64,000 nt of DNA from Cirrosporium novae-zelandiae. Taxonomy: Eukaryota. The stretch lies in contig JAPETS010000032.1 in assembly GCA_026023565.1 (NCBI GenBank), positions 1 through 64,000 of the forward strand. Reading direction: 5' to 3'. The position numbers were made by a program, and so were the translations under genes. Numbering within the stretch: the first letter of the stretch is position 1; each line of letters opens with the position of its first letter. The notes beneath the pieces were generated by a model. The model did not search any database. It saw only the letters and a list, made by a program, of their open reading frames with translations, and was not told the origin of the DNA. Shown here piece by piece: positions 1 to 64,000 of this stretch.

Positions 1-709
1 AAAAAAAAAAAATATTAAAAAAAAAAATCAGAAAATAAAAAAAAATAAAAAAATTAACGGAAAAATTAGAAATATTAGAAAATAAACGAGCGAAACACGA
101 ACGTACTACCGTCGGAATATATACGAGCTATATAAAAAACCGAAACCCGAAAAAACTATTCACAATAAAACTCCCGACGCCCGAGAATTATTATAAAAAA
201 AATTATAAAAAATTAAAAATATTTATTCGATAAAACGAAATCTATTTCGAAAAAAACCCCTATATATATTCTAAAAAAAAAAATAAAATCGCTACGGCTG
301 CGTATTTTCTACAGAACGTTATCGGAAACCTATAATATAAATAAACGACAGAAAAAAAAAACGAATTCAATTAAATAAAATTTAAAAAATTCTTAGAAAT
401 AGAAATCGACGACCTATAGAATAAAAATTTCAAAATAGCAAAAACATTTATACGTACCGAACAAATACCGGGCCAGACACCGCACGCATTTTACGCGTAC
501 GTATAAAATCTCCGGGCACAGCTACCCCTATTCACGAACACGAATTTCTAGGAAATGATTACGATATTCCTCTATCTACAATCACTACTAAAAAAAACCA
601 TAATAATAAACGGATCAATACCGGAAAAAAAAAAAATATAATAAAAATAACAGCAAAAATATAAAACGAATTAAAAAAAAAAAAAAAAAAAAAAACGAAC
701 AACCGTCGG

Positions 710-816
<107 letters not shown>

Positions 817-3800: not shown

Positions 3801-4024
3801 TTATAATATCCCCAGAGCCCAAGAAAAATAATAACAATAGATTTTATTACCGATTTACCGCCAAACAGACGGGATAATAACGTATATAACGCAATTTTGG
3901 TAGTAATAGATAAATACTCCAAATTAGCTATATATATACTATATACGAAAAAAACGAAAACAGAGGACCTAACGGAATTGATATAAAAAACGATCGGAAC
4001 AAAATTTAAAATATCTAAAAATAT

Positions 4025-7000: not shown

Positions 7001-10000
7001 TGCGAAAAATATATTAGCCGCAGATTATACGGAAACGTAATTAAAAAACGAAATATAAAAAATTATTATTTAGTTAAAAACTATTCTAAATAAATACGTA
7101 AAATCTAAACGGATATACGCCTGGTCGAAAATTTGGTAGAACCCCGAATATACCGCCAAAAAATACGAATATTGTATAGCGCTTAAAAAAGCGAGATAAA
7201 AATGCCGAATTTACGAAAAAACTAAAACGGTGCTTAAAAAATTTACAAAATTAATTAGAACCAAAAAAAAGGATAAATAAATTAATTTTTTTTAAATATA
7301 TATAGGGAGAAACGATCTAAACAAACCCTTAAATCCCGAAAATATTCAACGAGAATAAAAAATATTGCAATACTGTAAGCCCTAAAACCGAGACCCGACG
7401 CCGGCGCTCCGTATAGAAGACGGGAGGGTAGCGGTGAAAATCAAGAACAAAAAGATTTTTATACGGGAGCGAGCATTCCCGCCACCCCCAGAAAGCCCCG
7501 AACCCCGGCTTCCGATAGAGGAGGTATTCGCCCAACAACTGTCTAAAAAAGCGGTACGGAAAATATTATACGTACAAAATACGAATAAAACCCCAGGGTA
7601 CGACGAAACTTAATTTGGGGCGTTCCGTATACTATAGTAGTGGGACCCCGGTAGAATAATGGGGGTGGTCCGGTATTATTTCCGGTTAGAGTATCACCCG
7701 ACGCAGTAAAAATATACCCGGGAAATACTATTATTCAAATCTAGACGAGCCGATAAAATATTAATTAAAAATTATAGAGTGATAAATTTATTATATTATT
7801 TAAATAAAATAATCGAAAAAATTATAGCGGACGCGCTAACGGATATATACGAAAACCTAAATAAATTATATAAAAATTAATTTGGATCGAAACGTAACCG
7901 GAGCGCAGTCGATACGCTTGCGTATCTGATATACCGAATAGAAAAAAAATTTAACCGAAAATAAATAATTTATATTTTATTTATAAACGTTAGAAAAGCG
8001 TTTAATTATATATTAAAATTCAAATTAATTCAATACTTAAAACAATTAAAAATCGATAGAAATATTATTAGATAAATAACTAATTTTACGGTCCAACGAA
8101 ACGTCGAATTAGTGATCGACGGAGAAATACAACCCCGAATCAATATAGAAACGGGGGTACCGCAGAGATTATTTGTATCCCTAATATTATTTCTAATATA
8201 TTACAGCGGGTTATTCGCAGCCGTAGAATAGGCGGTTTTTGGGATTAAAACTCTATTATTCGTGGACGACGTAAATTTCTCGATCATTTATATAGATAAT
8301 AAACAAGCCCGAAAAATTATCTAACAAACAGCGAAAACGGCGATTCAATAAAAAAAAAAAAATAAACTAGAATTCGACGTTCAAAAAACCGAGATTATAG
8401 TTTTTTCTAAACTACGTAAACACCAAATTTAGATAAATATTAAATTAAAAATTAGGGTTGATAATCACCCGATCGAATATAAAACGGATTACGTACGGTA
8501 GTTAAGCGTATAACTAAATCCGAAATTCAATTTCTAAATTTATTACGCCCAGCGTTTAGCTAAAACCAGACACGCGGAAAAAATAATTAGATATATTTAC
8601 CACCGAAACGGGCTATTTACGGGATTTGCGCGCCAGGTAGCCGTAGCAACTATAATATCAATCTATATATACGGGTGTGAGGTCTGGTGGAAAAGACAGA
8701 TCGGGTATTAAATAGAATTTCAAAAACTGCTGAATAAACTCGCAAAACTAATAATAAAAATCTATAAAATAACCCCGATAGCAGCGATTATATAGAAAAC
8801 CTATATATATCCCACAGACGTAATACTAAATACCGCGCAGAAAAAATATAGATTTCGGTATTTCCAAAAAACCGAAAAAAATCCAACGAACCTAATACTG
8901 CCGATAACGCTCAGAATAAAAAATGTAAACGCCTAATTAGAGAAATAACCGCTGCAAAATTTTTAATAAATCTAGAAAACTAAAAAAAACACGTTAGATT
9001 AATATTTGGTTATAACGATAATTTAAAAAATAATAAACCCGGGCTTTAGGATCGAAAAAATCTAAATAACCGAAAAAAATAATAATATTTCCAGAATAAT
9101 AGATCTTCAGCGAAACGCTAGCGTAGAACTGGAAAAACGTATATTAATCGGACGGATCTAAACTAAAAAACCGCAAAATAGAGGCGGGGGTAGCCTGGAA
9201 AATAATCGAAAAAACCCCGTGGATAATACGGAAATACTATTTAGGTCAAAATAAAGAAATATTCGATATAGAGTTTTGGGGGGCGCAGACGGTCCTAGAA
9301 ATAGCGGTTAAAGTATATCCAAATAATTACAAAACCCCCGGAAAAAAAATAATAATATTATTTAATTCGCAAGCGGCTATCAGGCGGATCGAAAAAAAAA
9401 AATTAAAAAAAAATCAAACGATCGTATAAAAAATATACGAATATACTAAATATTTAATCGATCAAAAAACGAAAATCGTTATTAAATAAATCCCAGAATA
9501 TTATAAAATATTAAAAAACGAAACAGCAGACCAAACGGCCAAAACAAATATAACGTTAAAAAATAATAAAATAGCCGAATAAATTTCGCTGATTTATATA
9601 GCCCGTAATATAACGGAAAAACAGATTATAAAAACGTACAATCAATTACGCAGCTGAAAAATAAAAAAATCGCCCGATAAATCTTATCGAATATATCTAA
9701 AATATAAAAAAAATCGGGTATTAGAATACGCGCCTAAAAAGTTAATGGATAGACTCTATTAAATAAAAACGGGACACGCCGCCACCGAAAAATATATATA
9801 CCGCACGAAAATTATTACTATCCCGGAATATTGATAATACGGGATTCTATATTAAAATATCCTCTATTTAATATTAATATACCCGCGCTGGAAAACGGTT
9901 AAAGCCCGTTTACGGAAAATAATAAAAAAATAAAAAAATTAATAGTCCAGTATAACCGATAAAAAAAAATTAGTATTCGTATTAAAGAACCGAAAATTTT

Positions 10001-10480
10001 TTAAAGATTGGGTGCGCTTTTTAGACGATACGGAAGTGGGGAAACCCCAATACTGGACTAGACACGAAACGGAAAATCGTAAAACGTACCTAGATTGAGA
10101 ATAGATAGAACCCGGACACGGAAAAAAAAACGATCCAAAAACAGATATTGAATAAAAATTAGACCCGTAATAGAAACGCGGGATAAACGTATACGTAAAC
10201 AAAAACTGAAAAAAATCGAAAATAAATACGAGTGGGCCTATTTATAGATTACGAACACCGAAATAACGCTAAAAAACTATCCGGTTAAATAAATCAGATA
10301 ATTCTAGGAAACCCAAAGAAGGGGGGAAGCTATATAGCCGAATCAGGGGGATAACCCCCACTACTATAGTTAAAAGCAAGCCCGAAAAGGGATACAAAAG
10401 GGTCTAAAAGCCCCCGAGTAGAGTCCGTCATAGCTTCTAAGCGATATATGGACATAAAACAATGAATAATCATTATCATC
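4025..10480 (+). mobile_element. Full-length Tad1-like LINE with RNase H, RIP-degenerate
   Basis: ORF1 relic has three CCHC-type knuckles (~5670-5860). ORF2 relic has an APE endonuclease start (~6135), RT (FVDD, ~8259-8270), RNase H (TDGSKL, ~9150) and a C-terminal Cys motif. It ends in an (AAT/CAT)n tail. TSD atctaaaaatat (4013-4024) / atttaaaaatat (10481-10492); removing the insert rejoins the integrase frame. Confidence 0.92.
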
Positions 10481-10935
10481 ATTTAAAAATATAATATCGG
10501 ATAAAGAATCATTATTTATTAATATTTATTGGGAATTATTCTGTTATTATCTAACGATACAAAAAAGATTGAATACCGTCTACTATTTACAAACGGATGG
10601 CCAAACCGAAAAACAGAATCAAACACTAAAAAGATATCTGAGAATATACTATAATTACAGTTAAAACGACTGAACAATACTATTAGCGAGCGCAGAATAT
10701 ACGTATAATAATACGAAATATCAGAAAACGAAAAAAACGCTATTCGAAATAATATATACGTTCAAACCAGAATTAAGAATAAACGTAGAAAAAATAAAGA
10801 AAAACGAAAACCCTGCTAAAAAAACACGCGCAGAAAATATAGAAAAAACACGGAAAAAAATATAGAAAATATAAGAAAAATCGGTTTTAAAATAAAAAAT
10901 TTACTACGATCGCTATTATATATCGAAATAATATA

Positions 10936-12876
10936 TGATGATTATTCATTGTTTTATATCCATATATCACTTAGAAGCTATGACGGACTCTATTCGGGGG
11001 TTTTTAGGCTCTTTTGTATCCCCTTTCGGGCTTATTTTTAATTATAGTGGTGGGGATTATCCCTCTGGTTCGGCTATATAGTTTCCCCCTTTTTTTAGAT
11101 TTCCTAGAATTATCTGATTTATTTAACCGGATAATTTTTTAGCGTTATTTCGGTGTTCGTAATTTATAAATAAATTTATTCGTACCTATTTTCGATTTTT
11201 TCAATTTTTGCTCACGTATACGCTTATCCCGCGTTTCTACTACGGGCCCAGTTTTTATCTAATACCTGCCTCTGGATCGTTTTTCCTCCCGTGTCCGGGT
11301 TCTATCCATCCCCAATCTAGATACGCCTCACGATTTTCCGTTTCGTATCTGGCCCAGTACTAGGGCTTCCCTACCTCCGTATCGCCTAAAAAACGTATTC
11401 AATTTTTAGAAAATTTTCGGTTCTCTAATACGAATATTAGTTTTTTTTTTCGGTTATACTGGGCCACTGACCCCCCTATTTTTCTATTACTCCCCGCAAC
11501 CGGGCTTTAACCGTTTTTCAGCGCGGATATATTAATATTAAATAGGGAACGTTTTGATACGGAGCCCCGTACCACCAGTATTCCGGGATAGTAGTGGTTT
11601 TCGTGCGGTATATATATTTCCCGGTGGCGGCGTGCCCCGTTTTTATTTGATAGAATCTATCTACCAGCCTTTTAGGCGTATATTCTAGCACCCGATTTTT
11701 TTTATATCTCGGGTGTATTCGATAAAATTTATCGGGCGATTTTTTTGTTCCCCAGCTGCGTAATTAGTTATACGTTTTTATAATCCGTTTTTCCGTTATA
11801 TTACGGGCTATATAGGCCAGCGAAATTTATTCGGCCGTTCTATTATTTTTTAACGCCGCGCCTGTTTTGGCCGTCTGATCTACTATTTCGTTCTTTGGTA
11901 TTTTATAGTGTTCTGGGATCTATTTAATAATAATTTTCGCCTTTTGATCGATCAAATATTTGGTATACTCGTATATTTTTTGTACGATCGTTTGGCCCCT
12001 TTTTAATCTTTTTTTTTCGATCCGTCTGATAGCCGCTTGCGAATCAAGTAATATTATTATTTTTTTTCCGGGGGTTTTATAATTATTTAGGTACGCCCTA
12101 GCCGCTGTTTGTAGGGCCGTTTGCGCCCCCCAAAATTCTATATCGAATATTTTTTTATTTTGATCTAAATAGTATTTCCGTATCGTTTATAGGGTTTTTT
12201 CGGCTGTTTTCCAGATTATTCCCGTCTCTACCTTACGATTTTCTAATTTAGATCCGTCCGACCAGTATATATCTTTCCAGTTCTGCGCTAACGCCTCGCT
12301 GAAGGTCTGTTATTCTAAAAATATTATTATTTTTTTTAAAAATCTATTTTCTTCGGTTATTTGGATTTTTTCGATCCCAAAGCTCGGGTCTATTATTTTT
12401 TGGATTATCGTTATAACCAAATATTGGTCTAACGTGTTCTTTTTGGTTTTCTGGGTTTATTGAAGGTTTTCCAGCGGTTGTTCCTCTGGTTAGGCGCCTG
12501 CGTCCCTTATTCTGAACGTTATCGGCAGTATTAGGTTCGTTGGGTTTTTTTCGGTTTTTTAGAAATACCGAAACCTATATTTTTTCTGCGCGGTATCTAG
12601 TATCACGCCTGCGGGATATATACAGACCTCCTGTATAACCGCTGTTATTGGGGTTGTTTTATAGGCCCCCGTTATTAGCCTGGCAAGCCTATTCAGCAGC
12701 TTTTGAAATTCTGCCTGATAGCCGGCTTGCCCCCTCCACCAAACCTCACACCCGTACATGTAGGTTGACACTACAGTCGCCACGGCTACCTGGCGCGCAA
12801 GCCCCGTAGGTAGCCCGTTTCGGTAGCATATATGCCTAACTGCGCCTTCCGCACGTCGGGCTTTAGCCAACCGTTG
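10936..12876 (-). mobile_element. 5'-truncated copy of the same Tad1-like LINE family, inverted
   Basis: Reverse complement aligns to ~8545-10480 including the 3' tail. Perfect 14-bp TSD atcgaaataatata at 10922-10935 and 12877-12890. ORF 12559-12870 reads as the post-RT region (YGCEVWW, RLITGAYKTTP). Confidence 0.93.
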
Positions 12877-14404
12877 ATCGAAATAATATAAAATAGAGGA
12901 TCAGGTACTACTAACAGCAAAAAATATAAAAACGAAACGGATAAATAAGAAATTGGACGCAAAATATCTAGGACCGTTTATCGTGAAAACTATATACGGA
13001 CAGAACGCGTACCGGCTACGGCTACCCCAGCAATACCAAAGATTATATCCGATATTCCACGTATTATTGTTAGAACCTTACAAAAAAAATCCGGATTACG
13101 AACCCCCGGAACCAGTACTATTAATAGGAACACCGGAATATATAATAGAAAAAATATTGGAATATAGGAAGAAAAAAAAAAAAACGAATATTTAATAAAA
13201 TAAAAAAACTGGTCACACGCGGAAAACCAATAGGAAAATATCGAAAATCTGGCGAATTACTAGAAAAATATAGAAATATTTTAAAAAAAAAAAAAAAAAA
13301 ATAATAAAAAATAAAAGGAAAAAAAACAGAAACGGGAATACCGCCGGAAAAAAAATAAAACGAAATAAAAAAAGATCAAAAAAACAATAAAAATAAAAAA
13401 TAAAAAAAAAATTTTATTAACGGTCTTAAAAATCACGGAATATTTACCGAAAAAAAAAACGCGTTCTGAGCGTACGCAATCCGTAATAGAGAACGCTCGA
13501 ACACCAACAGCTATATAAAAATTTAAATACCGACCGTATTCCCAACAGCGCCAGAATCTTTATTATTTCTAGAAACCGAATTAACACCAATATTAATACC
13601 CACAGAAACGTCGTTAAAAAAAGGATTGTAAAAAAAATAATTTACGTCGTCGTTATTATTTTTTTTTTTATTATTATCGATATTTACGTTATACTATCCA
13701 AAATTAATCGGGAAAAAAACGTACGAAAATAAAAAAAATACGTACAGCAGCCGTAAGCACCTAATCCAATTATCGAATAGATTGATTAATTTCAAACAAC
13801 AATTGATTAATACGGGCGGAAAAATCAAGTGGCGCAGTACGTTCCAACCGACGGGTAGCTACAACCCGACGGTAGAAACGACGGGCCGAGACCAAAAACT
13901 CTCTACGAAAAACGGCACTAGTATTGTTGGGACGGACGGAAACGATAATATCGGTCTACGCAAATAAACGGTTCAGACGAAACACCAGAACAAAAAAAAT
14001 CTAGAAAAATAATAAATAAAAAAAAAAAAAGGGAAAAAAAAATAAAGGAAAAAATAATATCTCGAAATATTTTTTATATTATTTATAACAGACGCCACAG
14101 AAGCGGCCAGACACCTAAAAATATACGAAAAAAAAATTTGCCGCAAAACGCCAAAAACATTTCAGATATATAAACCTGAAAAAAAGAGCGCCACGAACAG
14201 CAGCAGCAGGATTAGGGACGGAAATAAAAAAACGCGAAAAAAATATAATAGTGATAATAATAATAGTAATAATAATAATAATTAATAAATAAAAAAATAA
14301 ATAAAAAAAAAATAAATCTGAAATATAATTAGCAGGGACGTCGAAAAAACAGAAACGGGAAAAACAAAAAAAAAAAACGGGATACAAAAAAAAATAAAAA
14401 AAAA

Positions 14405-14471
<67 letters not shown>

Positions 14472-14880
14472 GCGATTATTTATATTCAGAAAAAAAAACG
14501 CTAATCCGAATAAAAAATAAAAACAGCAGTCCCGGAAAAACGGGATAATCAATAAAAATAAAAACAGCAGTACCAACGCAGTAAATAAATAATAAAAATA
14601 ATAAAAAAACGAAATAAAGCGATAATAAAGAAAATCTCTATTAAAAAAAAAAAAAAATAAAAATAAAAAAATAATAATTTCGCCGGATAAAAAACGATAA
14701 CGAACAAAAAACGGAATTTACGGATACTATAATATTATCAGATTTAGAGAAAGGAAAAACTATATCCAACGGAACGAAAAACCAGCGCTAAAAAATTAAA
14801 AATAGCGGTTGAAAACAACCGTACAAAAAAAAAAAAACTATATCATAAAAAAAAAAAAATAGAATACTAAAAAAAAATTC

Positions 14881-15232
14881 TGTCACAAAAAAAAAAAAAA
14901 ATAGAGTACTAAAAAAGATCGCTACGTCCAGGGACCAAAAACGGGATAAAAACGGAGAAATAGCGTTACGTAGCGCCGATAGATTACCGAAAAAAAAAAG
15001 ACGTCAAATAGAAAAACTTATATAAAAAAATAGAAAAAAAACTGGGAAAAACCAGTTTTCAGTCTTGTATTATATAGGAGTACTATTATTTCAATATTAC
15101 TACGATATGGACACACTACCTATTCGTATCGCTACCTACACTATCAGAGCCCCAACCTTGACAGATTCTCCAATTTTAATAAATAAAAAATCATTTATTC
15201 GTTGAAGCGTTCGGCGAATATATACTACGATA
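14881..15232 (+). repeat. Probable 3' LTR of the Gypsy element
   Basis: Starts TGTCAC after a purine (A) run that could be a RIPed PPT, contains AATAAA, and ends ..TACGATA (RIPed ..ACA) where the hAT transposase frame begins. The 5' LTR is not in the window for confirmation. Confidence 0.5.
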
Positions 15233-16980
15233 TTATGAAGTTTACCCACCGGTCCACGTTTTCGTTAAAACGCGGTCTTTTATTCTAACTGTTTTAGTTG
15301 AATAACTATATTATTTTCGATTTTAAAAATTTTAGAATTTATACCGAAAAAAAAAGATTTAACAGTAAAATTTATAATATACCCGAAATATCGAAAACGC
15401 CGCTACTCAGAAATACTAAATAAATAAAATATTTTTATTAAAATTTTTACGTATATATTATTAGAAAACGCGTTATCTAAAATAAAATAATTTATTTTAT
15501 TCTGAATATTATATTCTTGAATAAGATCTAGAATCGCAGTCAGTTTAGTGATAAATTCGATAAAATTAAAAATATTTATATTTATTAGCGCGTTGACTAT
15601 ATTTTCCTCTATATAAAAACCTTTGAGACGCCGTAGCCCAAATAATCGGGATATATTTTAATAATATTAAGGATTTAAATAATAATCAACAACCCCTAAA
15701 ATCGAGAAATAATTAGATAATATTCAAAAATCAAAATTAAAATAAATAAAATTTTTGCTAGCTCGTAATTAAGTTTTCAAAACCGTTTATTAAACCCGGA
15801 ATTCGGATAATATTTATTAGCGAATTATATAATAATCGCGAAATAAAAAAAATATTATATCTGAATTCAAAATTATCAAAAACGTACGGAATAAATTATT
15901 TTCAATCTAAATAAAAATAATATATATATTTATAATCCACTGAATAAATAAATATTTGAATCTAGCTATATTTGTTTTTATATACAATAAAATAATAGAC
16001 TGATATTAAAACTGAATCGTTGACTTTACTACAGTCTTATCTAAAAAAGTTCTAGATTAAGGGATATCGCCGTATTTATCGATTTTATAATATTCACGAA
16101 AATGGTGAACAGTATAAATAGTAATATTTATCGAATATATTTTTATTTTAAAATATTTTCGAATAAAACTTTAATAATTAATCAGTTTCTAAAAACGAAT
16201 TCTAAAATAGCAAATTATATATATTTATTATATCTCTATTTTCGAATTTTGATATTTCGTTTATTCACCAAAATCGTATTATATCAATGAATTTATAAAA
16301 TCGTATTATTTCTAATATTATATAAATCATCAGCTAAAAAATAATAATTCTGATCGATTTTGAATCGTTTTTTCGAAATATTAAGATAGATATTATCTAA
16401 AGTTTCGTAATTTAAATTTAGGGTTTTTTAATTTGAATTTGGAGCTTGAAATAAGATTAAAACTGAAAAAAAAAATATATCTGAAAAATTTGTATAAATT
16501 AAGGGTAATAAATTATATTTAACGCGAATAATCGATTTAATAAATATAATAATAATAAAAAAAATAATAATAAAAATAATAATAAAAATAATAATAAAAA
16601 TAATAATAAAGATATTAAAAAAAGTATTAAAAAAAATAATAAAAATAAAAATAATTAAAAAAAATATTATACAAAAAAAAAATTAAATTAGTTTTATATT
16701 TCTCGAGTTAAAGCTAATTTGACTAGATAATTAAAGAACCCATATTCCAAAACTCCTTACCCCGAATTTCTCCCGAATTCCCTCCTCCCAAACCCCCCTC
16801 GAAAACCTCAACACCACAAATTCCCCCCCCCCCACCTTATATGTGTATTTATATAGACCAAAATAGACTTTGGGCAGTCAAGGTCTGGTCGGTCTATGAA
16901 AAAACTTGGTCTGGTCGGTCTGGTCGGTCTGGTCGGTCGGGGTCAGACCGTCTATTTGGTCTGGTCCATTCCCTTCACTG
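15233..16980 (-). mobile_element. 5' half of a hAT DNA transposon (Restless/Tfo1-like), RIPed, broken by the Gypsy insertion
   Basis: Minus strand gives RIPed hAT motifs: LFGLRRLKGFYIEENI, YFILDNAFSNN, RRFRYFGYIINFTVKSFFFG (cf. RLRCxGHIINLxxKAFLFG) and *RKRGPVGKLHN. Terminal sequence CAGTGAAGGGAATGGACCAGACC ends at 16980, with subterminal GACC(A/G) repeats. Confidence 0.85.
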
Positions 16981-17100
16981 AATATTACACCAGTTACACC
17001 CTATCAATATACCTCGTAACAGAGTTCCTCACAGAATAAGGTAATTGATATACAAGAATTTAACCACAACAGAATAAATAATTATAATTAACGTTGGTAG

Positions 17101-17868: not shown

Positions 17869-19123
17869 ATGGCGGAGACACATAATCCGACTACTCTTTC
17901 TCTTCGGCGGCTCCCTTGGGGTGACCCAACGACTCATGAAGTTCATCCTCTAGCATTCAACCCAGATTTCCGCGTTTACTTGCGCCATCCCGCATATAGA
18001 TACCATTGCAACATTTTACTCATGCTGCCAGGATATGATCATCCTAATGGAGGAATCCACCATGGAACAGCACTACTCGCATGTGCCATTATAACTAACA
18101 ACAGCTTCAATAGGTAGTTCACGGAAGATCGAGAAGGCAAGGTCGTGCTTGACGTACTACGGAACGGCATTCTTCAAAAGCCCAATTACTACTTCTATAT
18201 ATTAAATAACTATGAAGGTGAATAGGAAACTTATAATTATCAATCTTTTACTAATTATTTTTGTATCTACAGAGATGTATCCAGTTATTCCTAGTTTTGG
18301 GCATTGGATATTCCCACGTAAGGGTCTTCCATTTCCATGGAAACTTCGTATTCTTTACAACGCAGAGCACCCAGTGCCGGGCCAAGGTGCTTTTAAAACA
18401 CCCATATATTCACCAACCACTCGGTGTCGAATTACAAATTATCTCGACTGTATAGAACATGCCCACCTAATCCCAAAAAGCGAAAATACTTGGTTCCAGC
18501 AGAACCTGATGGCACAGTATGGGTCGTCCGGATTAAGTTACGAACCAATTGACGATCCTCGGAATACGATCCTTTTACGATCCGATGTGCATACCTCTTT
18601 TGACATGAAACGATTTGCTTCGGTTCCCAAATCTCTGTGGGCTGAATCATCAGAGACAGTATCTCCCATCTCAGATTCCGACGCGTAGGTCGTTCAACTC
18701 TTTAAGTTAATGAATTCAGACGAGCTTACGTCCTTATATTATAACATCACTCTACACCCTCTTAAAGGCATTGCACCTGAATATATATTCGCGCGGTTTT
18801 CCTGGAAAATCTTTCTCTTGGTTTCCATATTCTTGCTGGCCGGAGTTCCTCGACGTTTGGTCTTCCATAAACACCCCACAACGGCCACCAACGAGAACAG
18901 ATTAACCGAAGAGGAAAAAACCCGTTCTGGAGAGCAATGCTATATATTGCCTTTTCGGAACAAGTCTCGCAGTGTCAGTCCAAAAAAGCGAAATCCCGCG
19001 GACAATGAAGATGATTATTACAATGAGCGGCGGTATACGTTATCGGAGGAGGCGTCTGACACGGAAATAGAAGTTTTAGAAAGTGAGTGGGAGCGAGGAC
19101 GGAAAAGATGGAGAGGTATTTAA
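17869..19123 (+). pseudogene. Fungal HNH endonuclease-domain gene with two in-frame TAG stops
   Basis: N-terminal LRHPAY..GGIHHGTALLACAII; intron 18218-18272; HNH core CRITN..EHAHLIP..WF..IDDPRNTILLRSDVHTSFD; then YIFARFSW. TAG at 18115-18117 and 18686-18688. Confidence 0.8.
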
Positions 19124-38320: not shown

Positions 38321-39055
38321 TTAAGGGAACTCACGTATATCAACCAACACCGCTGAAGCACTTTCATAGCCCCCATGCCAACATTTGTTAATGATACTTC
38401 CCATCTCTAGACTAGACACGTCTGGAAATTCGCCTTTCTTGTAGAGCTGCCTCACTTCCTGATCCGTCTTGTCCGCATAAGGGCGCATTCGCGTAGACAA
38501 CTCATAAATCACTGTACCGAAGCCAAACAAATCATCAATATGATCAAAGTCGTCTGTGTATTCATAGCGGCGTGAACATCTCTGTTCGTAAGAAACACCA
38601 TTGACTTTCACACCGTCGATTATTGAGCCAGCGAAGTCACAAAGCACGACATCTAAATTATCGGTAACGAGGATGTTGCTTGAACTAGTGTCACAGTGCA
38701 CGATCCTATTTCGATGAAGATACTCAAGACCTTCTGCAATCTGCTCTGCCCATTTAAGTGGGAATATTTCTGCATCGGATGGAATATATTCCCTAAGACT
38801 GCCCTTCGGGTGGTATTCGAGGCGGATCCCAATATCTCTAGGTGGTAGTCGTTCTGGTTCTATTGGCATGGGTCCTGGCCCAAGGTATTTTAGGATTCGG
38901 GGGTGGGGGCCAAGCCTTTCATAGACTTTACGTTCGCACTCGGTATCTTTCTCATTTCCGACCCAGGAGTGCTTGAGCACAATGGACGGAGTAAGATGAT
39001 AGACCCTCCCAGATTGGCCAGCACCAACACACTCATTATTGTGACCTTGGGCCAT
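38321..39055 (-). CDS. Small single-exon protein kinase (TKL-like, accessory type)
   Basis: GAGQSGRVY, IVLK, LEYHPKGSL, LHRNRIVHCDTSSSNIL, LCDFAGS, DDLFGFGTVIYEL; intact ORF. Confidence 0.88.
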   Translation of the reverse strand: MAQGHNNECVGAGQSGRVYHLTPSIVLKHSWVGNEKDTECERKVYERLGPHPRILKYLGPGPMPIEPERLPPRDIGIRLEYHPKGSLREYIPSDAEIFPLKWAEQIAEGLEYLHRNRIVHCDTSSSNILVTDNLDVVLCDFAGSIIDGVKVNGVSYEQRCSRRYEYTDDFDHIDDLFGFGTVIYELSTRMRPYADKTDQEVRQLYKKGEFPDVSSLEMGSIINKCWHGGYESASAVLVDIREFP

Positions 39056-39915
39056 GGCGATTGAACGCAACGTAACAAATGCTATTTAGCCTTGGCTTAG
39101 TATATCACTCGAGAATGGTGGAGAGCCAGGTGTTAATTTTAAAACTTAGGTCGAAACAATCTCAATTCCATCTCAGTTCCAACGAGTCGCGTTGCTCTCT
39201 TAAGATCTCACCTAAATTTAGATTAGACAGAGGAGATGGCGAGGTTCCGGTAACGCCTTTCCTGAAACAGTAAGCATTCTGTTAATTACGAGACAGCCAT
39301 TGTCTGCTTTAAGGGTTTGAAATATTTCGACTGTGACTCATCACATCTTTGAATAGAAGCGCGAACATGCATAATTTACGAAAATGTTTAACAAATTAAT
39401 TCTCTTATAGTATCCTGGCATTCCTTGGGAAGCTCTAAACAAACACCTTTCGGATTGGCCACAGTCATGGCAAAACTATAAGGAATGTCTCACGAAATTT
39501 TCGTAATACTGTAGTTTTCAGTAAGGAATATGTTGATATTCCGGAATATTCCGTGCCAAGATTAGATCTATCTACTAAGCAAATCTCCTAAACTCTCCCC
39601 CGCATAACCTACGTAGCCTGCAAGGATTATGATAGGTTAGACTACTCTTTTCAAGATCAAATTAAGCCTCAAAATCTGGATAATATCAACTTTTAGTTTA
39701 ACCCCTACTGCTCGTAGCATGGGCCATGCGGGGACAGTTCAGGAGATGCCATCAATACGAAAGGTACTAAAGGGGAGAGGATTGGAGATGTAGTTGTTGA
39801 TACAATTAATACTATTACATGTAGTTTTCTTAATTCCTAAAAATATATGGACCGCCCTGGTCCTCATCGCCCTTTAGTGATCCTCGTAACCATTCCTCCC
39901 ACCTGTAATCAGGTA

Positions 39916-41441
39916 TCAACCCTTCCTCTTTTTGGGGGATGGTGTCTCCATCCTCGTTGACGTGTCCGGGGTGATTGGCTGTAAATCAATATGACTTGAC
40001 TGGCTGTCTGGTTCCTGCTCCAAGGATTGGTTTTCAAATTGCTGCGGGAGTCCAAATTGCTGCGAGAGTCCAAATTGCTGCGGGAGTCCAGAGGGCTCCG
40101 ATAGTTGCAAATCATCAACAGCAGAAGAGAGTCTTTTGAAGTGATCAGGCATCCATACGTCATAAATGTTCTTCGTGATGGTGTATGCTGTCCACTTCTC
40201 TTTGCCCTCCTGTTCCGTGAAATCAAATTTGCGAATCGGACAATGCCAAAACGTGGTCTTAGCTCCGTCAATCACAGGGTAGTGCCCCCAAATCCTGACT
40301 GAATCATGATTATGAGAAAGCGAAAAACCGAGAATCTCCCGATGAAGCTCTTGCTCACGCCCCACTCGCCGGAAAAGCGCGACAACACCTTTCATTGCAA
40401 CAGTCATGCTGTGAGCATTCTGTCGATCTGCAATCTCAAGTCCGGTATTCCCACATTTGACTTCGCAGGTTAAGAAAGGGAAGTACATGAAATATGTAGC
40501 CCTGAAATAGGATAAACATGATGTGTCGCCAATAAATGGCTGAAGCTTACTAAGCTGATCATCCGAGAATGCAGATCGCGCAAAACCGACCGAAAAATCT
40601 GGTTGTGGGCGAGGTGTTGTTACAGGCATACAATTATTCCAGCCCTCGTTGACACTTTCGACTACGATATCAAGATGCTTTGCGCCAAATATAGCCAGGG
40701 ATTCGGCGGACGGAACGATCAACGGAGTAATATCTTTGAATAGTCTTGCTTCATTTTTGTTTTGTAATCTGGCGCAGGTAGCTCTGAAGGTCTTATCGTC
40801 GCGGAATAAGGTATCTTTCGGGGCAGGTTGCTCCTTCTCAAGTAGTGTCTGGCAGAGACTCTTGCTTGTGTCTGTTATACCCAACTCATACTCCTTCATA
40901 TGACTGTCGCCTTGAATCTCAAGCTCAGTTACATAATGCGGTTGCTTATATAGAGCGCTCTTTACCCTTTCTGATAATGGGTGGCTTGGGGTTGCAGTAG
41001 CGGCGAAACTGGCCTCTGATCGCCTAGGGCTGAACGCCATTGATTTTCTCCTCGCTAACAGAGGATCCATATTGTCTTGTTGATCGTCGTCTTGGTAGAA
41101 GTCTTTAGGCCAGGCGCATTCTTCTGCCCAATATCTGACATGGCCCCTCCAAGATGCGCTGCTAACGCTGGCTACCTCCTGACCAAATGTCTGCCCAAGA
41201 GAACAGTCTGCGGGCAAAGATCGAGGACGTTTTTGAGGCCGTTCAGTCGGTATGTGATTTATGGGATCTTCCGCTTCTCGGGGTCTCTTTTGGCCCCGCA
41301 ACAGTAGAGGAGGTGAGTTTTCTATGGAGTGTGAGATCGGACAGCCACTTTATATACCAGTAAAGGGAGCGTACCATTATCTCCTTGAGGAGAATCCCAT
41401 CGTTGCTCTTGGGCGCTTGGACGTGCTTGGTGACTGGCCAT
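39916..41441 (-). CDS. DUF7924-like PD-(D/E)XK nuclease-fold protein; short first exon from ATG 41441 spliced to the long ORF
   Basis: NEARL..ITPLIVPSAE, RPQPDFSVGF, YFPFLTCEVKC, ADRQNAHS, FSLSHNHDSVRIWGHY. A GT..TAG intron (~41323-41374) joins MASHQARP.. in frame. Confidence 0.8.
40036..40089 (-). repeat. 3 x 18-bp coding tandem repeat (GLPQQF/GLSQQF)
   Basis: AAATTGCTGCG(G/A)GAGTCC repeated three times. Confidence 0.85.
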
Positions 41442-42830
41442 GATGAATGTAATCGGAAAGTTCAGCAGTTTGTTGATGTAGCTGAAGTTGAAGTCGTGGA
41501 ACCAAAGGTGATGAAAGGCCAGGCTGCTGTTGGGGAACGGTCGACAAGTCCTACGCTCAAGGATTGGCCTACCTTACACCCGGGTGTAGCCACAACACAA
41601 TAACAGATAATTATCATTGGCCATAGTAGACTAAGTTATTATGAAATGGCTATATGACGTTATGATAATTATTTTTTAAAAAAATGATCAATATCAAATA
41701 TCTACAGGATCAAATTTGTAGGATAGGCTTCGATTTATAGAGCCTCAGGCACTGGAACTTTGTGCGACCTTCATTAGATAAATTACTGCTAATGATAACT
41801 AAATATCGCCTAGCGGCTAATTAATTACAATGGTTAAATTCTGTATGGAGCCAATAGGACGACCCCGAGATCACTTTTCTGGGTCTGGTCGCTTTTATTT
41901 TTAAGCGACCGCACCTTTACCACAGTAAACATGCGAACCACCCTCAGCCCCCAAACGATATCCGTCATCATCATCATTATTAACGTTATGCCACCACTAG
42001 CCACCACCAATGGCCCATGCTAGTAGGGGTGTCGCATAAAGATTATAGTACATAGCAGGGCTCAAGGTCTTATCATTGAATTTATGCATTAGAAGCGATG
42101 ATGTGATTCACTTCCATATTGCAACAGCTATCGCGTTAGCTTGCCTTCAAACTATAATTTCACATAGATAGAATCACTGGATTTTCTATTTTGCATCCAT
42201 TCTATTAATTATCTCCAAGGTCATTTCAATTCAAGATGGAACCCCCCCTATATCGTCAGTTTACCTGGAGACCCCTCATTATCATAGCTGCACTCCCAAA
42301 AATATCTCTCCAAGAGCGATCATTCAATCTACTATGCTTGGACATGTCAAGAATACTTTCAGTTTTAATTTTTTCCCTTTTAGATTGTCGCTATTTTCCT
42401 ACTTGAAGAATTTACCAAGTGATGCCGAGGATTGGGACGTAAATCTTCACCTGCTACTACTAGTTTTGACACAGTATATAGAGGCTTCGTAGGATCGTTG
42501 AGCGATGACCCACTACTCAAGACCTATTCCAAGTACGAAAATCTCTCCTAGAACCGAACCTCAGCTAATGCATCAAGGGCAAACAATACCTTTTGCGGAA
42601 AGCCAGTGTTTCGTGGAGCTGCCAATTCATATGAATGGCTCTCATATTTTGCTTGACCCGCTCTTCCGTCGATTGTATCTATGTTGACGACATCCGCGCA
42701 AGGAAATGTGCATGCGCCATATCATTATAAAGATGCGATCCTCTTATCCTTCCAGTACCTAATTCCCGTGCATATTCCACATATCTCCAGTCTACTCACG
42801 CGGTTTCATTACAACAAGACAGCTTTCACG

Positions 42831-59620: not shown

Positions 59621-60892
59621 CTAACCACAAATATCCACAATCAACCTCACAAACATCTTAACACAATCTATATAATCCACAATATCAACCTTCTCATCCG
59701 GTCTAGTATTATACCTGCCCCCAGGTCCACACACCACCCCCTCCATGCCCAACCTCTTATAAAGATGTCCCGCATCGCTTCCATAAAAGCACGTTGGGGC
59801 CAACGCCCCCGTTGGTTGCACCTCCCCCTTTCTCACTCCTGCATAAGCCGCATTTAGCGCCTTCACGATCCTGGAATCCCTCGATACCTCGAACGCAGGC
59901 ATGGTTGGATATTCCACCGGTTTCAACTCGAAGCGAAGACCTGGAAACTTTTCTGATATCATCTTTTCGATCTCGGATTTGATGTCCGAGAGTACTACCG
60001 CTTGGGTTTGGCCGGGCGCGTACCGGGCAGAACCTTTGATCCGAACGTAATCTGATACCTGTGGGGGTCGCCATTCCGCGAGGTCTTTCCCCAGGGCGCC
60101 GTGCATGACGCCGACGTGGCAGCGGTTGATCTTTGAGTGTTCTGGGGACCGGGCACCGCTAAATTTCATGGATGTTAGTCGTGGGATCAGTTCGCATGCA
60201 GCGAGGATCGCATCGACAGCTTCTTCCCTTGCGGACATGTGGCGCGTGATGCCGATCAATGTGAGCTCGAAGACGAGGGATTCCGCGTGCATGGTGATGG
60301 CGCGAATGTCGGCTGGCTCGCAGTTGACGAAGTAATCGGCGTTGTTGCAGCGGTTCTGGTCGATTAGTGCGACGGTTCCTACTCCGCCTTGGAGCTCGCC
60401 GACCACGTAGGTTAGGATCACGGTGCCTTTGGGGCGCCAGCCGGATTCTTTGAGGGCTTTTACGGCACAGTAGTAGGCGGCGCATCCGGATTTCATGTTT
60501 GAAACTCCGATACCGTAGATGAATTCTTCGTCGTAGGAGCCGGCCCAGGGGTCGATGGTCCAGCCTGAGCTGACGGGGTTGGTGTCGAGATGGCCATTGA
60601 ATAATAGAGATTTTCCTTTTGTTTCTTTTCCTTCTTTTCTTTCTTCTTTTTCTTCTTCTTCTTTTTCTCTTGTTCCATGCCAGATGCCAATGGCATTTTG
60701 ACGTTTTCCGGAATCAAATGGGACAACTTCGGCCTCTAATCCTAGACTTTTCATGGCATCTGCCATATACTGAGTGGCTTCGAGCTCTCCTGATGTCTGG
60801 GAATAAGATTTGATTTGAATCAAACGCGATAAGAAATCTAGGCATTCTTTCTGGTTGACTTCAGGATAACTGCCTTGGTTGATATCATCCAT
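59621..60892 (-). CDS. M20-family amidohydrolase (ArgE/DapE-like), intronless
   Basis: LSRLIQIKS, SLLFNGHLDT, IYGIGVSNMKSG, GSDAGHL, GPG..PDEKV; 423-aa single ORF. Confidence 0.88.
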   Translation of the reverse strand: MDDINQGSYPEVNQKECLDFLSRLIQIKSYSQTSGELEATQYMADAMKSLGLEAEVVPFDSGKRQNAIGIWHGTREKEEEEKEERKEGKETKGKSLLFNGHLDTNPVSSGWTIDPWAGSYDEEFIYGIGVSNMKSGCAAYYCAVKALKESGWRPKGTVILTYVVGELQGGVGTVALIDQNRCNNADYFVNCEPADIRAITMHAESLVFELTLIGITRHMSAREEAVDAILAACELIPRLTSMKFSGARSPEHSKINRCHVGVMHGALGKDLAEWRPPQVSDYVRIKGSARYAPGQTQAVVLSDIKSEIEKMISEKFPGLRFELKPVEYPTMPAFEVSRDSRIVKALNAAYAGVRKGEVQPTGALAPTCFYGSDAGHLYKRLGMEGVVCGPGGRYNTRPDEKVDIVDYIDCVKMFVRLIVDICG

Positions 60893-61799
60893 GGTTTTGG
60901 CTTGTTGCTTTTGTAATTTAGGCTTGAAGATTTGCTTTGTCGTCTAAGGTACGCGTGATATATATAGATATTAAATCCAAGATCTCCACGGGATCATTCT
61001 GCGCAGCAATTGACAGAATACCACATCTCAGCCTAGCTAGTGGGGGTTCCGAGAGCGGACCATGATACAAATGGCCAACATAACGACCTAGGTCATGTTG
61101 TATGGATGTCACCGAAGAAATAGGGAACTATATCGCAGAATCGCGGGTGTTTTTGTCATCTCCTGCATGCCAAGCCAACTACAGATTCCCTGTCTCTCAG
61201 TTAACTGTATTGTGTTGAGATTCACATGATGAAACAAACACAAAATTTAATCCACTGAACTGACCTCCACTTTAGTGGATCGGTTTAAATTGTGTAGTCT
61301 GCTCTTTCAAGATGGAGTAGAAAGTGTTGAAAAGGTGAGTGAGGTAGGTAGCATGATTTATTTTATTGCTCATAGAAAGTATCGGCCTTAAGCAATGACC
61401 GACGCGGCTTGGGGGCCGAAAGCCCACTTTTGCGGCCTTTAAGCCTCTAGTTCTCTCTTGTGGTTGCTTATCTTTAATGCGGGGTTGTGGGGGGGCACGC
61501 CGGTCCCACAATAAACGGGACTCACAGATTGTTTGAAACCCCGAGGGCAAGTCGCCTGTTTGAATAATTTCCTCATGTCGTGAGTACATATTCAAACATA
61601 CGACTCTCACCTTCGGCCTCCGAAAAATCATTTTTGAACAAAGTAGAAGTTAGAATTGTTGTGTTGTTGTCTCTCCTGTTAATTGTGAGTGCCATAGTAG
61701 AATTAATTTTGAGCACAGCATTTTTGCGGAATATATAACCAGTACCTCTTCTTCTACAAATCTGCATCCTTTTTACATCTCTTGCTCTCTATTGCCAAG

Positions 61800-62948
61800 A
61801 TGGAAGAACAAGACCTCGGTGTCGAAGAACCTCTCAAACAGCTTCGGATAGCAAAACGAGAGAGGTTGAAAGCTGAGCAAAGAACAGAGCAGGCCAAGTT
61901 GCTACTACAAAATACAACTCTACATGAGTTTCTAGAATACTATCACTACATTTCCAAACCATTCTACGTTCAAAGAAATAGGACTGGATTTAGTCTTATA
62001 AACCCCCAAGATAAATTTTATCCCAAGAGGCTATGCGAATGGAGTGATTTCAGCCAGACTCAGAGATATTTCTTCGACAAGGCATATTCTGTTCTTCATC
62101 CAGCTTCAAAGCCACCTTTACGGCCCTTCGACTCAATATCCTATATCGAGACTGCCGGACCTAAAGACTGCGTTCGACCATTTCAAAGCGAAACGTATCT
62201 TCAGATATATGAAAAATACGCAGTTGAGCAACCTGTCACAAGCATTATCGCCGCTTTGGCTAAAACTCCACTTACCTTACCCTACAAGCTCGGCAACGGT
62301 ATTATATTTGGAGTTTATCCCAACACTCTCGGCCATTTGAACAGGGAACTTGAAGGGCGTCAGCAGACTGAGATGAGACCTCCAAATACTAACCAGCAAT
62401 ACGTCTACAAGAATGACAGTGGTCTTCAAACTCCTCTTTTTGTCATCAATTATCAAGGTCCATACGAGGTTTCGGTTGAAGATATTTCATGGGGCTTCCG
62501 TGACAGTTTAAGCATCTCAAATATCATTCAACGAGACACCGTTCCGACCGACTTGAATCAAAGGTCAGCAGAGAATTCTGAAGAAGTTATAGCAGCTGTT
62601 GTGACACAAGCCTTTGACGCCATGATCAACTGTGGCCTTGAATATACCTACATCATAACGGGGGAAGCGATAGTGTTCCTCCGCGTCAACGAGAATGAGC
62701 CGACGACCTTATATTATCACGTATCTTTGCCCAACCAGGAGGCAGATAGATGTCATGATCCGATATTACGCATCTCTCGAACTACAATTGGGCAGGTATT
62801 GGGATTTTGTCTCATGGCTTTCCAGTCCGAACAGAGAGGTGATGATTGGCAAACCTCAGCAAAGGAACAGCTAGAGAAATGGCCTATTAGTCGTCTTTTC
62901 CGCCATCCTCAGGCAAGGGAACGAGGAAAGGCACCTCTGGGGTTGTAG
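61800..62948 (+). CDS. Spok-like protein (coiled-coil + nuclease-fold region only, 382 aa)
   Basis: Coiled-coil AEQRTEQA, TTLHEFLEYYH, NPQDKFYPKRLCEWSDF, AVEQPV, GNGIIF, AAVVTQAFDAMINCGLEY..ITGEAIVFLRV..EPTTLYYHVSLP, TTIGQVLGFCLMAF, which match the N-terminal half of Podospora SPOK proteins as I recall them. Confidence 0.8.
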   Translation: MEEQDLGVEEPLKQLRIAKRERLKAEQRTEQAKLLLQNTTLHEFLEYYHYISKPFYVQRNRTGFSLINPQDKFYPKRLCEWSDFSQTQRYFFDKAYSVLHPASKPPLRPFDSISYIETAGPKDCVRPFQSETYLQIYEKYAVEQPVTSIIAALAKTPLTLPYKLGNGIIFGVYPNTLGHLNRELEGRQQTEMRPPNTNQQYVYKNDSGLQTPLFVINYQGPYEVSVEDISWGFRDSLSISNIIQRDTVPTDLNQRSAENSEEVIAAVVTQAFDAMINCGLEYTYIITGEAIVFLRVNENEPTTLYYHVSLPNQEADRCHDPILRISRTTIGQVLGFCLMAFQSEQRGDDWQTSAKEQLEKWPISRLFRHPQARERGKAPLGL

Positions 62949-63552
62949 TTCAAGGCAAGAGTCCTTCTCTTCCGTCAAGGTCGTTTAGCTGAGACTGCGA
63001 CAAGGTGGAATGGCAGGATATAGGCTGTAATTGTCCGGCATTCATTATTGTTATCAAAAAGCTTTTTGACAGGAATCCTGGTTGTCTGTATTTTAATTAA
63101 TAATTTCTAGTTTTGTTCCTATCCTTCAAGCTTTATTGCTGTAGATCATAGAAATAACCGGAATTTCAAGTGATACAGCTAGCCCTTGTCTGTAATAATT
63201 CTGGGATCTAATAAGTGTGTTATTTTGTAACAATGTAGAATTAATTCTATGAAAAATATGCTATTAATTAACGGAACATCAATAACCCTGCAAGAAACCA
63301 CAATCGTACTATGATAGACTATCAGGTGAAATAATCCCTGGTACGGTAGGGCTACTCCACACGGAGTTTAACTACTTCAAGTAACCGCTAGGCGATGTTT
63401 AGTATAGTGACTGCCTCATATGGTTAGAGGAAGATTTTAATTTGAGTGTGTACTAGGGATTATTTGGCTTGACACCATAGCTACCTACGCTTAGTTTAGA
63501 GAGCATTCTATTTTACTTACCAACACTTTCAGCTATTTAGCCATCACTATTA

Positions 63553-64000
63553 ATGCCAATAATTTATTGTCCGCTTCCTCCAGGACCGACAAGGCGCCCT
63601 CGTCTAGTTCGTCCGCTGAACCATGGATCTCTCAAACTAGAAAAGGTCTTCTCATTTCTCTCCGAAGAAGAGAAAACGACCCCTCCGACACTACAGACGT
63701 GGAAGGAAATTCAAACCCCAAGGCTCAGACGTTATCCTGACTGCGAGAAAATATTGATTCAAGAGCTGATCGATGATCGTGGGATGGATGGCTACGTTTT
63801 TAAGGTGGACATGGGTGGTACTGGTCCATATGTGCTAAAAAATTGTACTAAGTTTCGACTAAAACATCGCCTCAAATGTAATGCCGACTTTATCTTAGTT
63901 CAAGCAAACATTTCCGTCACGACCACCTTTTATCTGGCCCTTCTATAGAGAATGCCTTTATTATTCTCGATCAGAAGCAGTGAATGCAGGTGTGTTGAAC
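63553..64000 (+). CDS. FTA2-like kinase-fold gene, partial, possibly degenerate
   Basis: PRLRRY..GMDGYVFKVDMGGTGPYVLK, then a probable intron and WPFYREC, resembling the GxVFKV..YALK..PFxxECR signature. Confidence 0.5.

Follow-up and report, generated by a model that had tools for sequence, protein, structure and literature searches.

Is an open reading frame (ORF) that has the first half of a Spok-type gene, with altered catalytic residues and no second half, a decaying relic or a protein kept by selection? Spok genes are, to our knowledge, the only meiotic drivers with the poison and the antidote in one protein, and we know of little documentation of how genes of this type die or are tamed. 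The ORF analyzed here lies at positions 61800–62948 of a stretch of 64,000 nucleotides from Cirrosporium novae-zelandiae (contig JAPETS010000032.1, positions 1 to 64,000; the window). An initial interpretation made from the letters alone (the sequence-only reading) had described it as a disarmed Spok-like gene, possibly a domesticated pseudo-nuclease or a decoy or suppressor of Spok drive. Our preferred explanation, to which we give a probability of roughly one half (0.52), is that the ORF is the disarmed remnant of a Spok-type toxin–antidote gene, a relic of stepwise decay in which the poison was lost first and the antidote later.

The layout described for SPOK3 of Podospora consists of a coiled coil, domain 1, a PD-(D/E)XK domain with its motif at residues 219–240 and a QxxxY motif at 294–298, a Cys cluster and a kinase with D667 (PMC6660238); the role of the QxxxY motif is taken from the same source. 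The full-length K240A protein keeps resistance, and the kinase protects in cis as well as in trans (PMC6660238). The truncated Spok3(1–490) alone is strongly toxic and its K240A form is non-toxic (PMC6660238, PMC12693581), and the results on toxicity and resistance were confirmed in yeast and Escherichia coli (PMC12693581, PMC9972908).

A single uninterrupted frame of 382 amino acids runs from the ATG at 61800 to the TAG at 62946–62948, as the sequence-only reading had it; translation and a public gene model, likewise of 382 amino acids and located on a 346,971-base contig, agree with this. The stop-to-stop frame starts at 61713, and an in-frame TTG at 61782 would lengthen the protein by six residues. 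The features of the frame are as follows, with percentages referring to alignment columns of the relatives and pLDDT denoting the predicted local distance difference test score.

61800..62948, plus strand: Spok-family N-terminal-half ORF, 382 codons and TAG (frame reading; homology at E 1e-100 to the 722-residue relative P0004)
61824..61907, plus strand: predicted long N-terminal helix, residues 9–36, equivalent to the SPOK coiled coil (AlphaFold2 secondary structure)
61920..62294, plus strand: domain 1, residues ~41–165, function in the family not known (AlphaFold2, pLDDT mostly >90)
62295..62834, plus strand: predicted PD-(D/E)XK (restriction-endonuclease-like) fold domain, residues ~166–345 (VIA-align matches)
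62307..62318, plus strand: family motif F-E-N-H reading F-G-V-Y, residues 170–173 (columns 56–80% conserved)
62391..62393, plus strand: catalytic Asp column reading Asn (N198, AAC; 94% D in 85 relatives)
62448..62456, plus strand: catalytic E-x-K reading N-Y-Q (N217 AAT, Y218, Q219 CAA; columns 95% E and 98% K)
62463..62468, plus strand: H-K of 'EYKxPHKL' reading Y-E (Y222, E223; columns 93% H and 94% K)
62607..62621, plus strand: QxxxY motif reading Q-A-F-D-A (Q270 kept, Y274A; Y column 79%)
62946..62948, plus strand: TAG stop where the inter-domain linker begins (frame; relatives continue for 330–430 residues)
62949..63023, plus strand: possible in-frame linker remnant behind the stop, weak (F-K-A-R in register with 'SSFKAR' of the relative P0008)

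The Spok-like N-terminus recognized in the sequence-only reading was recovered by profile and HMMER searches as part of a family with the Spok layout, with E values reaching 1e-100. The best relative, P0004, has 722 amino acids and matches at E 1.3e-100 with 48% identity over 90% of the query. Eight matches of 713–813 amino acids were found among longer proteins (P0005–P0010: 738–813), and only two among proteins of similar length, one of which (P0002, 346 amino acids) has no start and comes from a contig of 1,213 bases. The homology spans the first ~395 residues of fungal proteins of 700–810 amino acids with the SPOK layout. At E<=0.001 an exhaustive HMMER search returned 1138 representatives, of which 645 remained at 1e-10 and 99 at 1e-30; among the best 150 of the 1138, most have 700–830 amino acids. 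A family hidden Markov model (HMM) built without the ORF protein scores it at 361 bits. A 382-codon frame with homology at E 1e-100 is not a chance ORF. The protein database attaches the tag PF27653.1, used here by accession rather than by model name, to the ORF protein and all of its relatives; a scan of this ORF and the next one downstream against a local copy of Pfam gave no family at E<=1.

The relatives have a charged N-terminal repeat, the motifs 'DQxCVY', 'EYKxPHKL' and 'TQTFxYM', and a linker, followed by 'YCTQxCLLGL...CPN...H', which is a C-x3-C-x13-C-x5-H cluster, and a kinase-like end, 'HxD...N...IDFE'. The tie to the Podospora SPOKs rests on this architecture and on the motifs described in PMC6660238 rather than on direct alignment. 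As in the layout of SPOK1–4 and the FuSpoks, the ORF has a domain 1 and a domain 2 with the predicted PD-(D/E)XK fold, both homologous to those of the relatives, and a helix at the QxxxY position follows. It also shares the coiled-coil feature, a predicted helix (residues 9–36) that aligns with the Glu/Arg/Gln-rich N-termini of the relatives. The spacing from the catalytic Asp to the Lys position is 21 residues in both SPOK3 (219–240) and the ORF protein (198–219). However, the ORF ends at the linker, lacks the Cys cluster and the kinase, and reads N/N/Q and QxxxA at the catalytic and QxxxY positions. Because the triad, QxxxY, Cys cluster and kinase all fail, the ORF is classed as a disarmed derivative and not as a Spok driver.

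The active site was examined in an alignment of 86 sequences, comprising the ORF protein and 85 relatives. The triplets TNQ and NYQ, which had been read as the degenerate nuclease core, are T197-N198-Q199 (62388–62396) and N217-Y218-Q219 (62448–62456), and the alignment places them on the catalytic columns. In a MAFFT alignment these columns are D/E/K in 129 of 160 rows, including 98 of the 106 full-length rows (those with the Cys cluster) that cover the N-terminal region, and N/N/Q solely in the ORF protein. Seven of the 23 columns conserved at 90% or more are altered: G64F, D198N, C201Y, E217N, K219Q, H222Y and K223E. The FENH motif carries E171G, N172V and H173Y. Conserved residues without a catalytic role have also been lost (G64F, C48Y, C201Y and D133Y), and 12 of 47 conserved columns of domain 1 are altered; E131 on the first helix is retained together with Q270. 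The metal-binding acidic residues and the catalytic Lys of the SPOK and PD-(D/E)XK families are thus absent, as is the Tyr of QxxxY. From these replacements of D by N, E by N and K by Q, the protein would be expected neither to cut DNA nor to kill.

As had been proposed, neither E>N (GAR>AAT) nor K>Q (AAA>CAA) is possible without a transversion, a kind of change that repeat-induced point mutation (RIP) does not make. A single G>A or C>T change accounts for each of D198N, C201Y, H173Y and H222Y, and RIP-type mutation may have contributed to these.

The half that carries resistance in SPOK3 was sought in several ways. When ten relatives were compared with the whole window by tblastn, only the N-terminal match was found and all others had E>=0.43; for the kinase region, the best of these lie at 38321–39085 on the opposite strand, within an ordinary protein-kinase gene. 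With all filters off, a profile built from 75 C-terminal halves gave at best −1.7 bits against the six frames of 62700–64000. Neither the C-x3-C-x13-C-x5-H cluster nor the C-terminal kinase was found in the ORF or in 62700–64000. The absence noted earlier for 600 bases behind the stop thus extends to the 1,052 bases between the stop and the window end, in which no remnant of the Cys cluster or kinase was detected, and splicing to a downstream Cys or kinase exon finds no C-terminal homology to join in any frame up to 64000. With the Cys cluster and the kinase gone, the protein would be unable to protect.

The family HMM alignment of the ORF stops at residue 380, among the first linker residues. 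The tblastn alignments of P0007 and P0008 cross the TAG to 62981 and 62963, respectively, without support from the family HMM; this weak register behind the stop hints at a nonsense mutation inside a once-longer frame. An ORF at 63553–63948 was rejected as the lost kinase (hhalign probability 0.6%; no match to the C-terminal-half profile). That ORF has its own ATG and a glycine-loop-like 'GYVFKV...YVLK', and is likely to extend beyond an intron and over the window end at 64000. The only lead for it is FTA2 (PF13095), weak at 0.88; Pfam gave no match, and no homologue was found among longer proteins.

Structure prediction with AlphaFold2 from the 86-sequence alignment gave a pLDDT of 89 and a predicted template-modelling score of 0.88. 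In the model N198 starts strand 199–206, and N217–Q219 end strand 209–218. Foldseek found no match in the PDB at E<=0.001, with HsdR chains at E 1.5–2. A VIA-align comparison with 48,161 chains placed BpuSI first (Z 9.7, 146 residues aligned, root-mean-square deviation 3.2), followed by DrdV (Z 7.1), HsdR of EcoR124I (Z 6.5), HsdR of Vibrio vulnificus (3h1t, Z 6.3), two restriction-endonuclease-like proteins, SgrAI and TT1808. Restriction endonucleases or restriction-endonuclease-like entries thus make up eight of the top ten rows; a Z below 8 can reflect a common arrangement, and the matches here are consistent as one fold family. The best HHpred match reported for SPOK3 is HsdR of V. vulnificus (PMC6660238). 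The fold predicted for domain 2 of the ORF is that of the nuclease domains of BpuSI, DrdV and type I HsdR, although these are bacterial restriction enzymes with 6–14% sequence identity to it and their active sites are intact. On this model, the ORF protein retains the PD-(D/E)XK restriction-endonuclease fold with its alpha-beta-beta-beta-alpha-beta core.

No orthologue for the ratio of nonsynonymous to synonymous substitution rates (dN/dS) was found in the protein databases searched, the nearest relative being 48% identical, and family conservation was therefore used as the yardstick. In a maximum-likelihood tree the ORF protein is sister to P0002 and P0004 (Shimodaira–Hasegawa-like approximate likelihood ratio support 97), with a branch of 0.75 in comparison with 0.25–0.34 for the sister pair. 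Rates were compared over columns with a consensus of at least 40% in the 83 other rows that was kept by the compared partner (P0004 or the ORF). The ORF protein departs from the consensus at 40 of 146 such columns and P0004 at 7 of 113 (binomial p 1e-6). The ORF lineage is accelerated relative to its sister, by a factor of 2–4. Thirteen of the 40 changes are of the G>A/C>T type and five of the A>G/T>C type. RIP as the sole cause was rejected: the indices of the ORF are normal (TpA/ApT 0.78, (CpA+TpG)/(ApC+GpT) 1.21), unlike those of window positions 1–17000 (1.05 and 0.60).

The changes are not spread evenly. Among columns conserved at 0.8 or more, 6 of 10 have changed within the active-site motifs and 4 of 39 elsewhere (p 0.002), the wider motif windows having in part been picked after the changes were seen. 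At the sites named in the literature (D, E, K, Q and Y), 4 of 5 have changed in comparison with 13 of 66 other columns conserved at 0.7 or more (p 0.01). Outside the motifs, the fractions changed were 19/48 at conservation 0.4–0.6, 6/40 at 0.6–0.8 and 4/39 at 0.8 or more; the difference between the weakly (19/48) and strongly conserved columns (10/79) has p 0.0009. Furthermore, neutral simulations needed 137–172 substitutions to reach an equal share of changed columns, and only 3–4 of 1000 runs then remained free of stops (P ~0.004, indels ignored), which bears out the earlier argument that the open frame is unlikely under neutral decay. Over the history of the whole lineage, as distinct from the time after truncation, the ORF does not behave as an unconstrained pseudogene: its changes track conservation and no internal stop is present. 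For most of this lineage's history, purifying selection, albeit relaxed, acted on the remainder of the protein while the active site was abandoned.

Two multi-copy repeats flank the ORF.

61533..61779, strand not assigned: multi-copy repeat ending 21 bases 5' of the ATG (read depth in run X1 rises from ~360 to 2000–2900; loose ends at 61533, 61606 and 61779)
63226..63480, strand not assigned: multi-copy repeat at the expected place of the kinase half (23-nucleotide inverted repeat 63322–63344 / 63450–63472)

Run X1 is probably the DNA run from which the stretch came; next to none of the stretch is present in two further runs from that study, and no RNA run was among the sequencing runs listed as containing it. 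Copies of the upstream repeat differ mostly by G>A and C>T in X1, and this repeat may have replaced or supplied the promoter of the Spok-like gene. The downstream repeat resembles a miniature inverted-repeat transposable element; one weak copy lies at 41798–41850, and the surrounding region is AT-richer. The upstream and downstream sequences do not match each other, and their interpretation as the terminal repeats of a single element was rejected. No close paralogue of the ORF was found in X1, where a single contig was recovered at a likeness of at least 80% and gaps prove nothing.

Judged from the model, the coiled coil, domain 1 and the PD-(D/E)XK fold persist in the remnant. In the decay that we favour, the nuclease of a full-length gene would have been inactivated first, producing a resistance-only allele comparable to SPOK3 K240A or the Spok2 of strain A. 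Later, when resistance was no longer profitable, the linker would have acquired a nonsense mutation and the DNA behind it would have been lost, removing the kinase half and leaving at present an orphan frame that is not yet broken and would have no role in drive. We infer this sequence of events, with the nuclease lost before the kinase half. Since K240A keeps resistance without killing, a nuclease-dead intermediate would be viable (PMC6660238). The relaxed constraint (40/146 in comparison with 7/113) with its longer branch, the lost non-catalytic residues, the excess of G>A/C>T-type changes and the flanking repeats count for a relic, as do the short forms with degenerate triads in other fungi and the pseudogenised Spok copies reported from many genomes.

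Several observations weigh against this explanation. The frame has stayed open against the neutral expectation, and the graded change outside the active site suggests that selection on the fold was at work during most of the divergence. The TAG coincides exactly with a domain boundary, so that what is left is a clean two-domain module that has its own ATG and is predicted with high confidence. The selected protein may have been a full-length, resistance-only form or the truncated one of today; the pattern of change is compatible with both. The component statements of the sequence-only reading (Spok N-terminal half, absent Cys/kinase half, dead triad, transversions, open frame) stand. However, its argument that loss of resistance would be suicidal unless the nuclease had died first is too strict: the SPOK3 kinase also protects in trans (PMC6660238), so that a full-length paralogue could cover a truncated killer.

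The second most likely account, which we hold tentatively, is that the truncated and catalytically dead protein is itself kept by selection. Such a pseudo-nuclease might be a DNA-binding or dimerizing module that poisons or titrates an active Spok relative through the coiled coil or the nuclease-domain interface; it might act as a dominant negative, a decoy or a suppressor, or might have been co-opted for some other function. The open frame, the grading of change by conservation and the concentration of change in the active-site columns and the sites chosen a priori all speak for retention, as do the intact ATG, coiled coil and domain boundaries in a confidently predicted model and the recurrence of short forms with degenerate triads in three named fungi. 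Identical signals are nevertheless expected from a full-length resistance-only ancestor that was truncated recently. The 2–4-fold acceleration, the loss of invariant non-catalytic residues, the lack of an orthologue in the databases searched and the partly retrospective choice of motif windows also tell against retention, and resistance maps to the kinase half rather than to the N-terminal half (PMC6660238). The narrower proposal that a doubly disarmed Spok module is kept in order to suppress spore killing, by dimerizing or competing with an active Spok relative, is doubtful.

The truncation might instead be an artefact of the window or the gene model, with the kinase lying beyond the window end and joined through a long intron, stop-codon editing or read-through. 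The window does stop 1,052 bases past the TAG, the next three in-frame stops are all TAG, and early-UAG editing is reported to control a Neurospora spore killer. This is very improbable, however, because C-terminal homology is absent from every frame to 64000, the repeats and the unrelated ORF with its ATG at 63553 intervene, read-through of the TAG yields only 24 more codons before the next stop, and the public gene model ends at the same length. The least likely account is that the protein is a still-active toxin using other residues and kept harmless by a separate full-length Spok in trans. E131 and Q270 are kept, protection in trans is documented for SPOK3 (PMC6660238), and SPOK3(1–490) is described as more toxic than the kinase point mutant (PMC12693581). 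However, the three core PD-(D/E)XK residues are lost together with H222, K223 and Y274, and K240A or a change at K247 alone abolishes toxicity in Podospora, yeast and E. coli (PMC6660238, PMC12693581, PMC9972908).

The neighbourhood is otherwise that of ordinary genes: M20 peptidase, bestrophin, RING, FHA, M16 peptidase, Tom22, a solute symporter, a protein kinase and DUF7924. No Starship captain-like or DUF3435 match was found in the 37 ORFs of at least 110 amino acids that were scanned, out of 60 listed; the other 23 were mostly frames overlapping longer ORFs and the ORFs of the local Pfam scan. The DUF7924 match (E 1.7e-105) is a 477-residue frame at 39916–41349 on the minus strand. The M20 peptidase gene (59621–60892, minus strand) contains at 60619–60726 a Glu/Lys-rich low-complexity insert, 'EKEEEEKEERKEGKETKGK', in the peptidase frame. 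Window positions 1–17000 are AT-rich (GC 0.24–0.41) with a strong AT skew and the RIP-like indices given above (TpA/ApT 1.05, (CpA+TpG)/(ApC+GpT) 0.60), and consist of RIP-like retroelement debris with a reverse-transcriptase fragment at 2086–2427. A 160-residue frame with an HNH_2 endonuclease domain (E 4.6e-12) adjoins this AT-rich block at 18206–18688 on the plus strand.

Short Spok-like forms also occur in other fungi. Among representatives that cover the N-terminal region, degenerate triads were found in six of the 21 short forms that lack a Cys cluster and in 8 of 106 full-length proteins (p 0.013). Three short degenerate gene models lie on long contigs of three named fungi: P0035 (369 amino acids, triad DGK), P0048 (376, NDK) and P0053 (389, YEQ). 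P0035 and P0053 form a three-row clade with the full-length P0026 (support 98). These forms suggest that kinase-less, disarmed Spok proteins recur in fungi, although the three gene models may be fragments of pseudogenes. The nearest named relatives of the source lineage are lichen-forming fungi, and no paper on Spok genes in lichen-forming fungi was found among the matches listed.

Several known systems resemble the ORF in part. Pseudogenised Spok copies are stated to 'exist in many genomes' (PMC12693581), and Spok-Psi-1 and the pseudogenised FuSpoks are, like the ORF, copies that have lost function, which are reported as common. However, Spok-Psi-1 carries numerous internal stops and an inserted transposon and has no 5' end (PMC6660238), whereas the ORF lacks its 3' half and retains an intact, open 5' half. 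The resistance-only Spok2 of strain A and Spok3 K240A, in which nuclease function went but selection on the protein persisted (PMC6660238), correspond to the proposed intermediate; such alleles keep the kinase and protect, which the ORF, on present knowledge, would be unable to do. The antidote-only wtf suppressors of fission yeast are disarmed members of a killer family that suppress drive (PMC7032740), a likeness that concerns the suppressor proposal only, since wtf is an unrelated family in which the antidote is kept and in the ORF it is lost. The closest parallel is the engineered Spok3(1–490) K240A (Vogan 2019; Genetics 2025), in which the kinase half and the nuclease lysine are both lost, as in the ORF. 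The ORF differs from it in being natural, ~100 residues shorter (without the linker) and changed at ten or more active-site-motif positions rather than one.

The ORF is thus a natural counterpart of the laboratory construct Spok3(1–490) K240A, and its pattern of change provides sequence-level support for the expected order of decay, in which the poison goes first, with the protein still selected, and the antidote later. If the remnant module is nonfunctional, it would be one more decayed Spok copy. A functional module would be the first suppressor to stem from a Spok's toxin half, and, should the suppressor proposal be true, a host-side or intragenomic anti-drive factor made from the killer's own toxin half would have arisen repeatedly in fungi.

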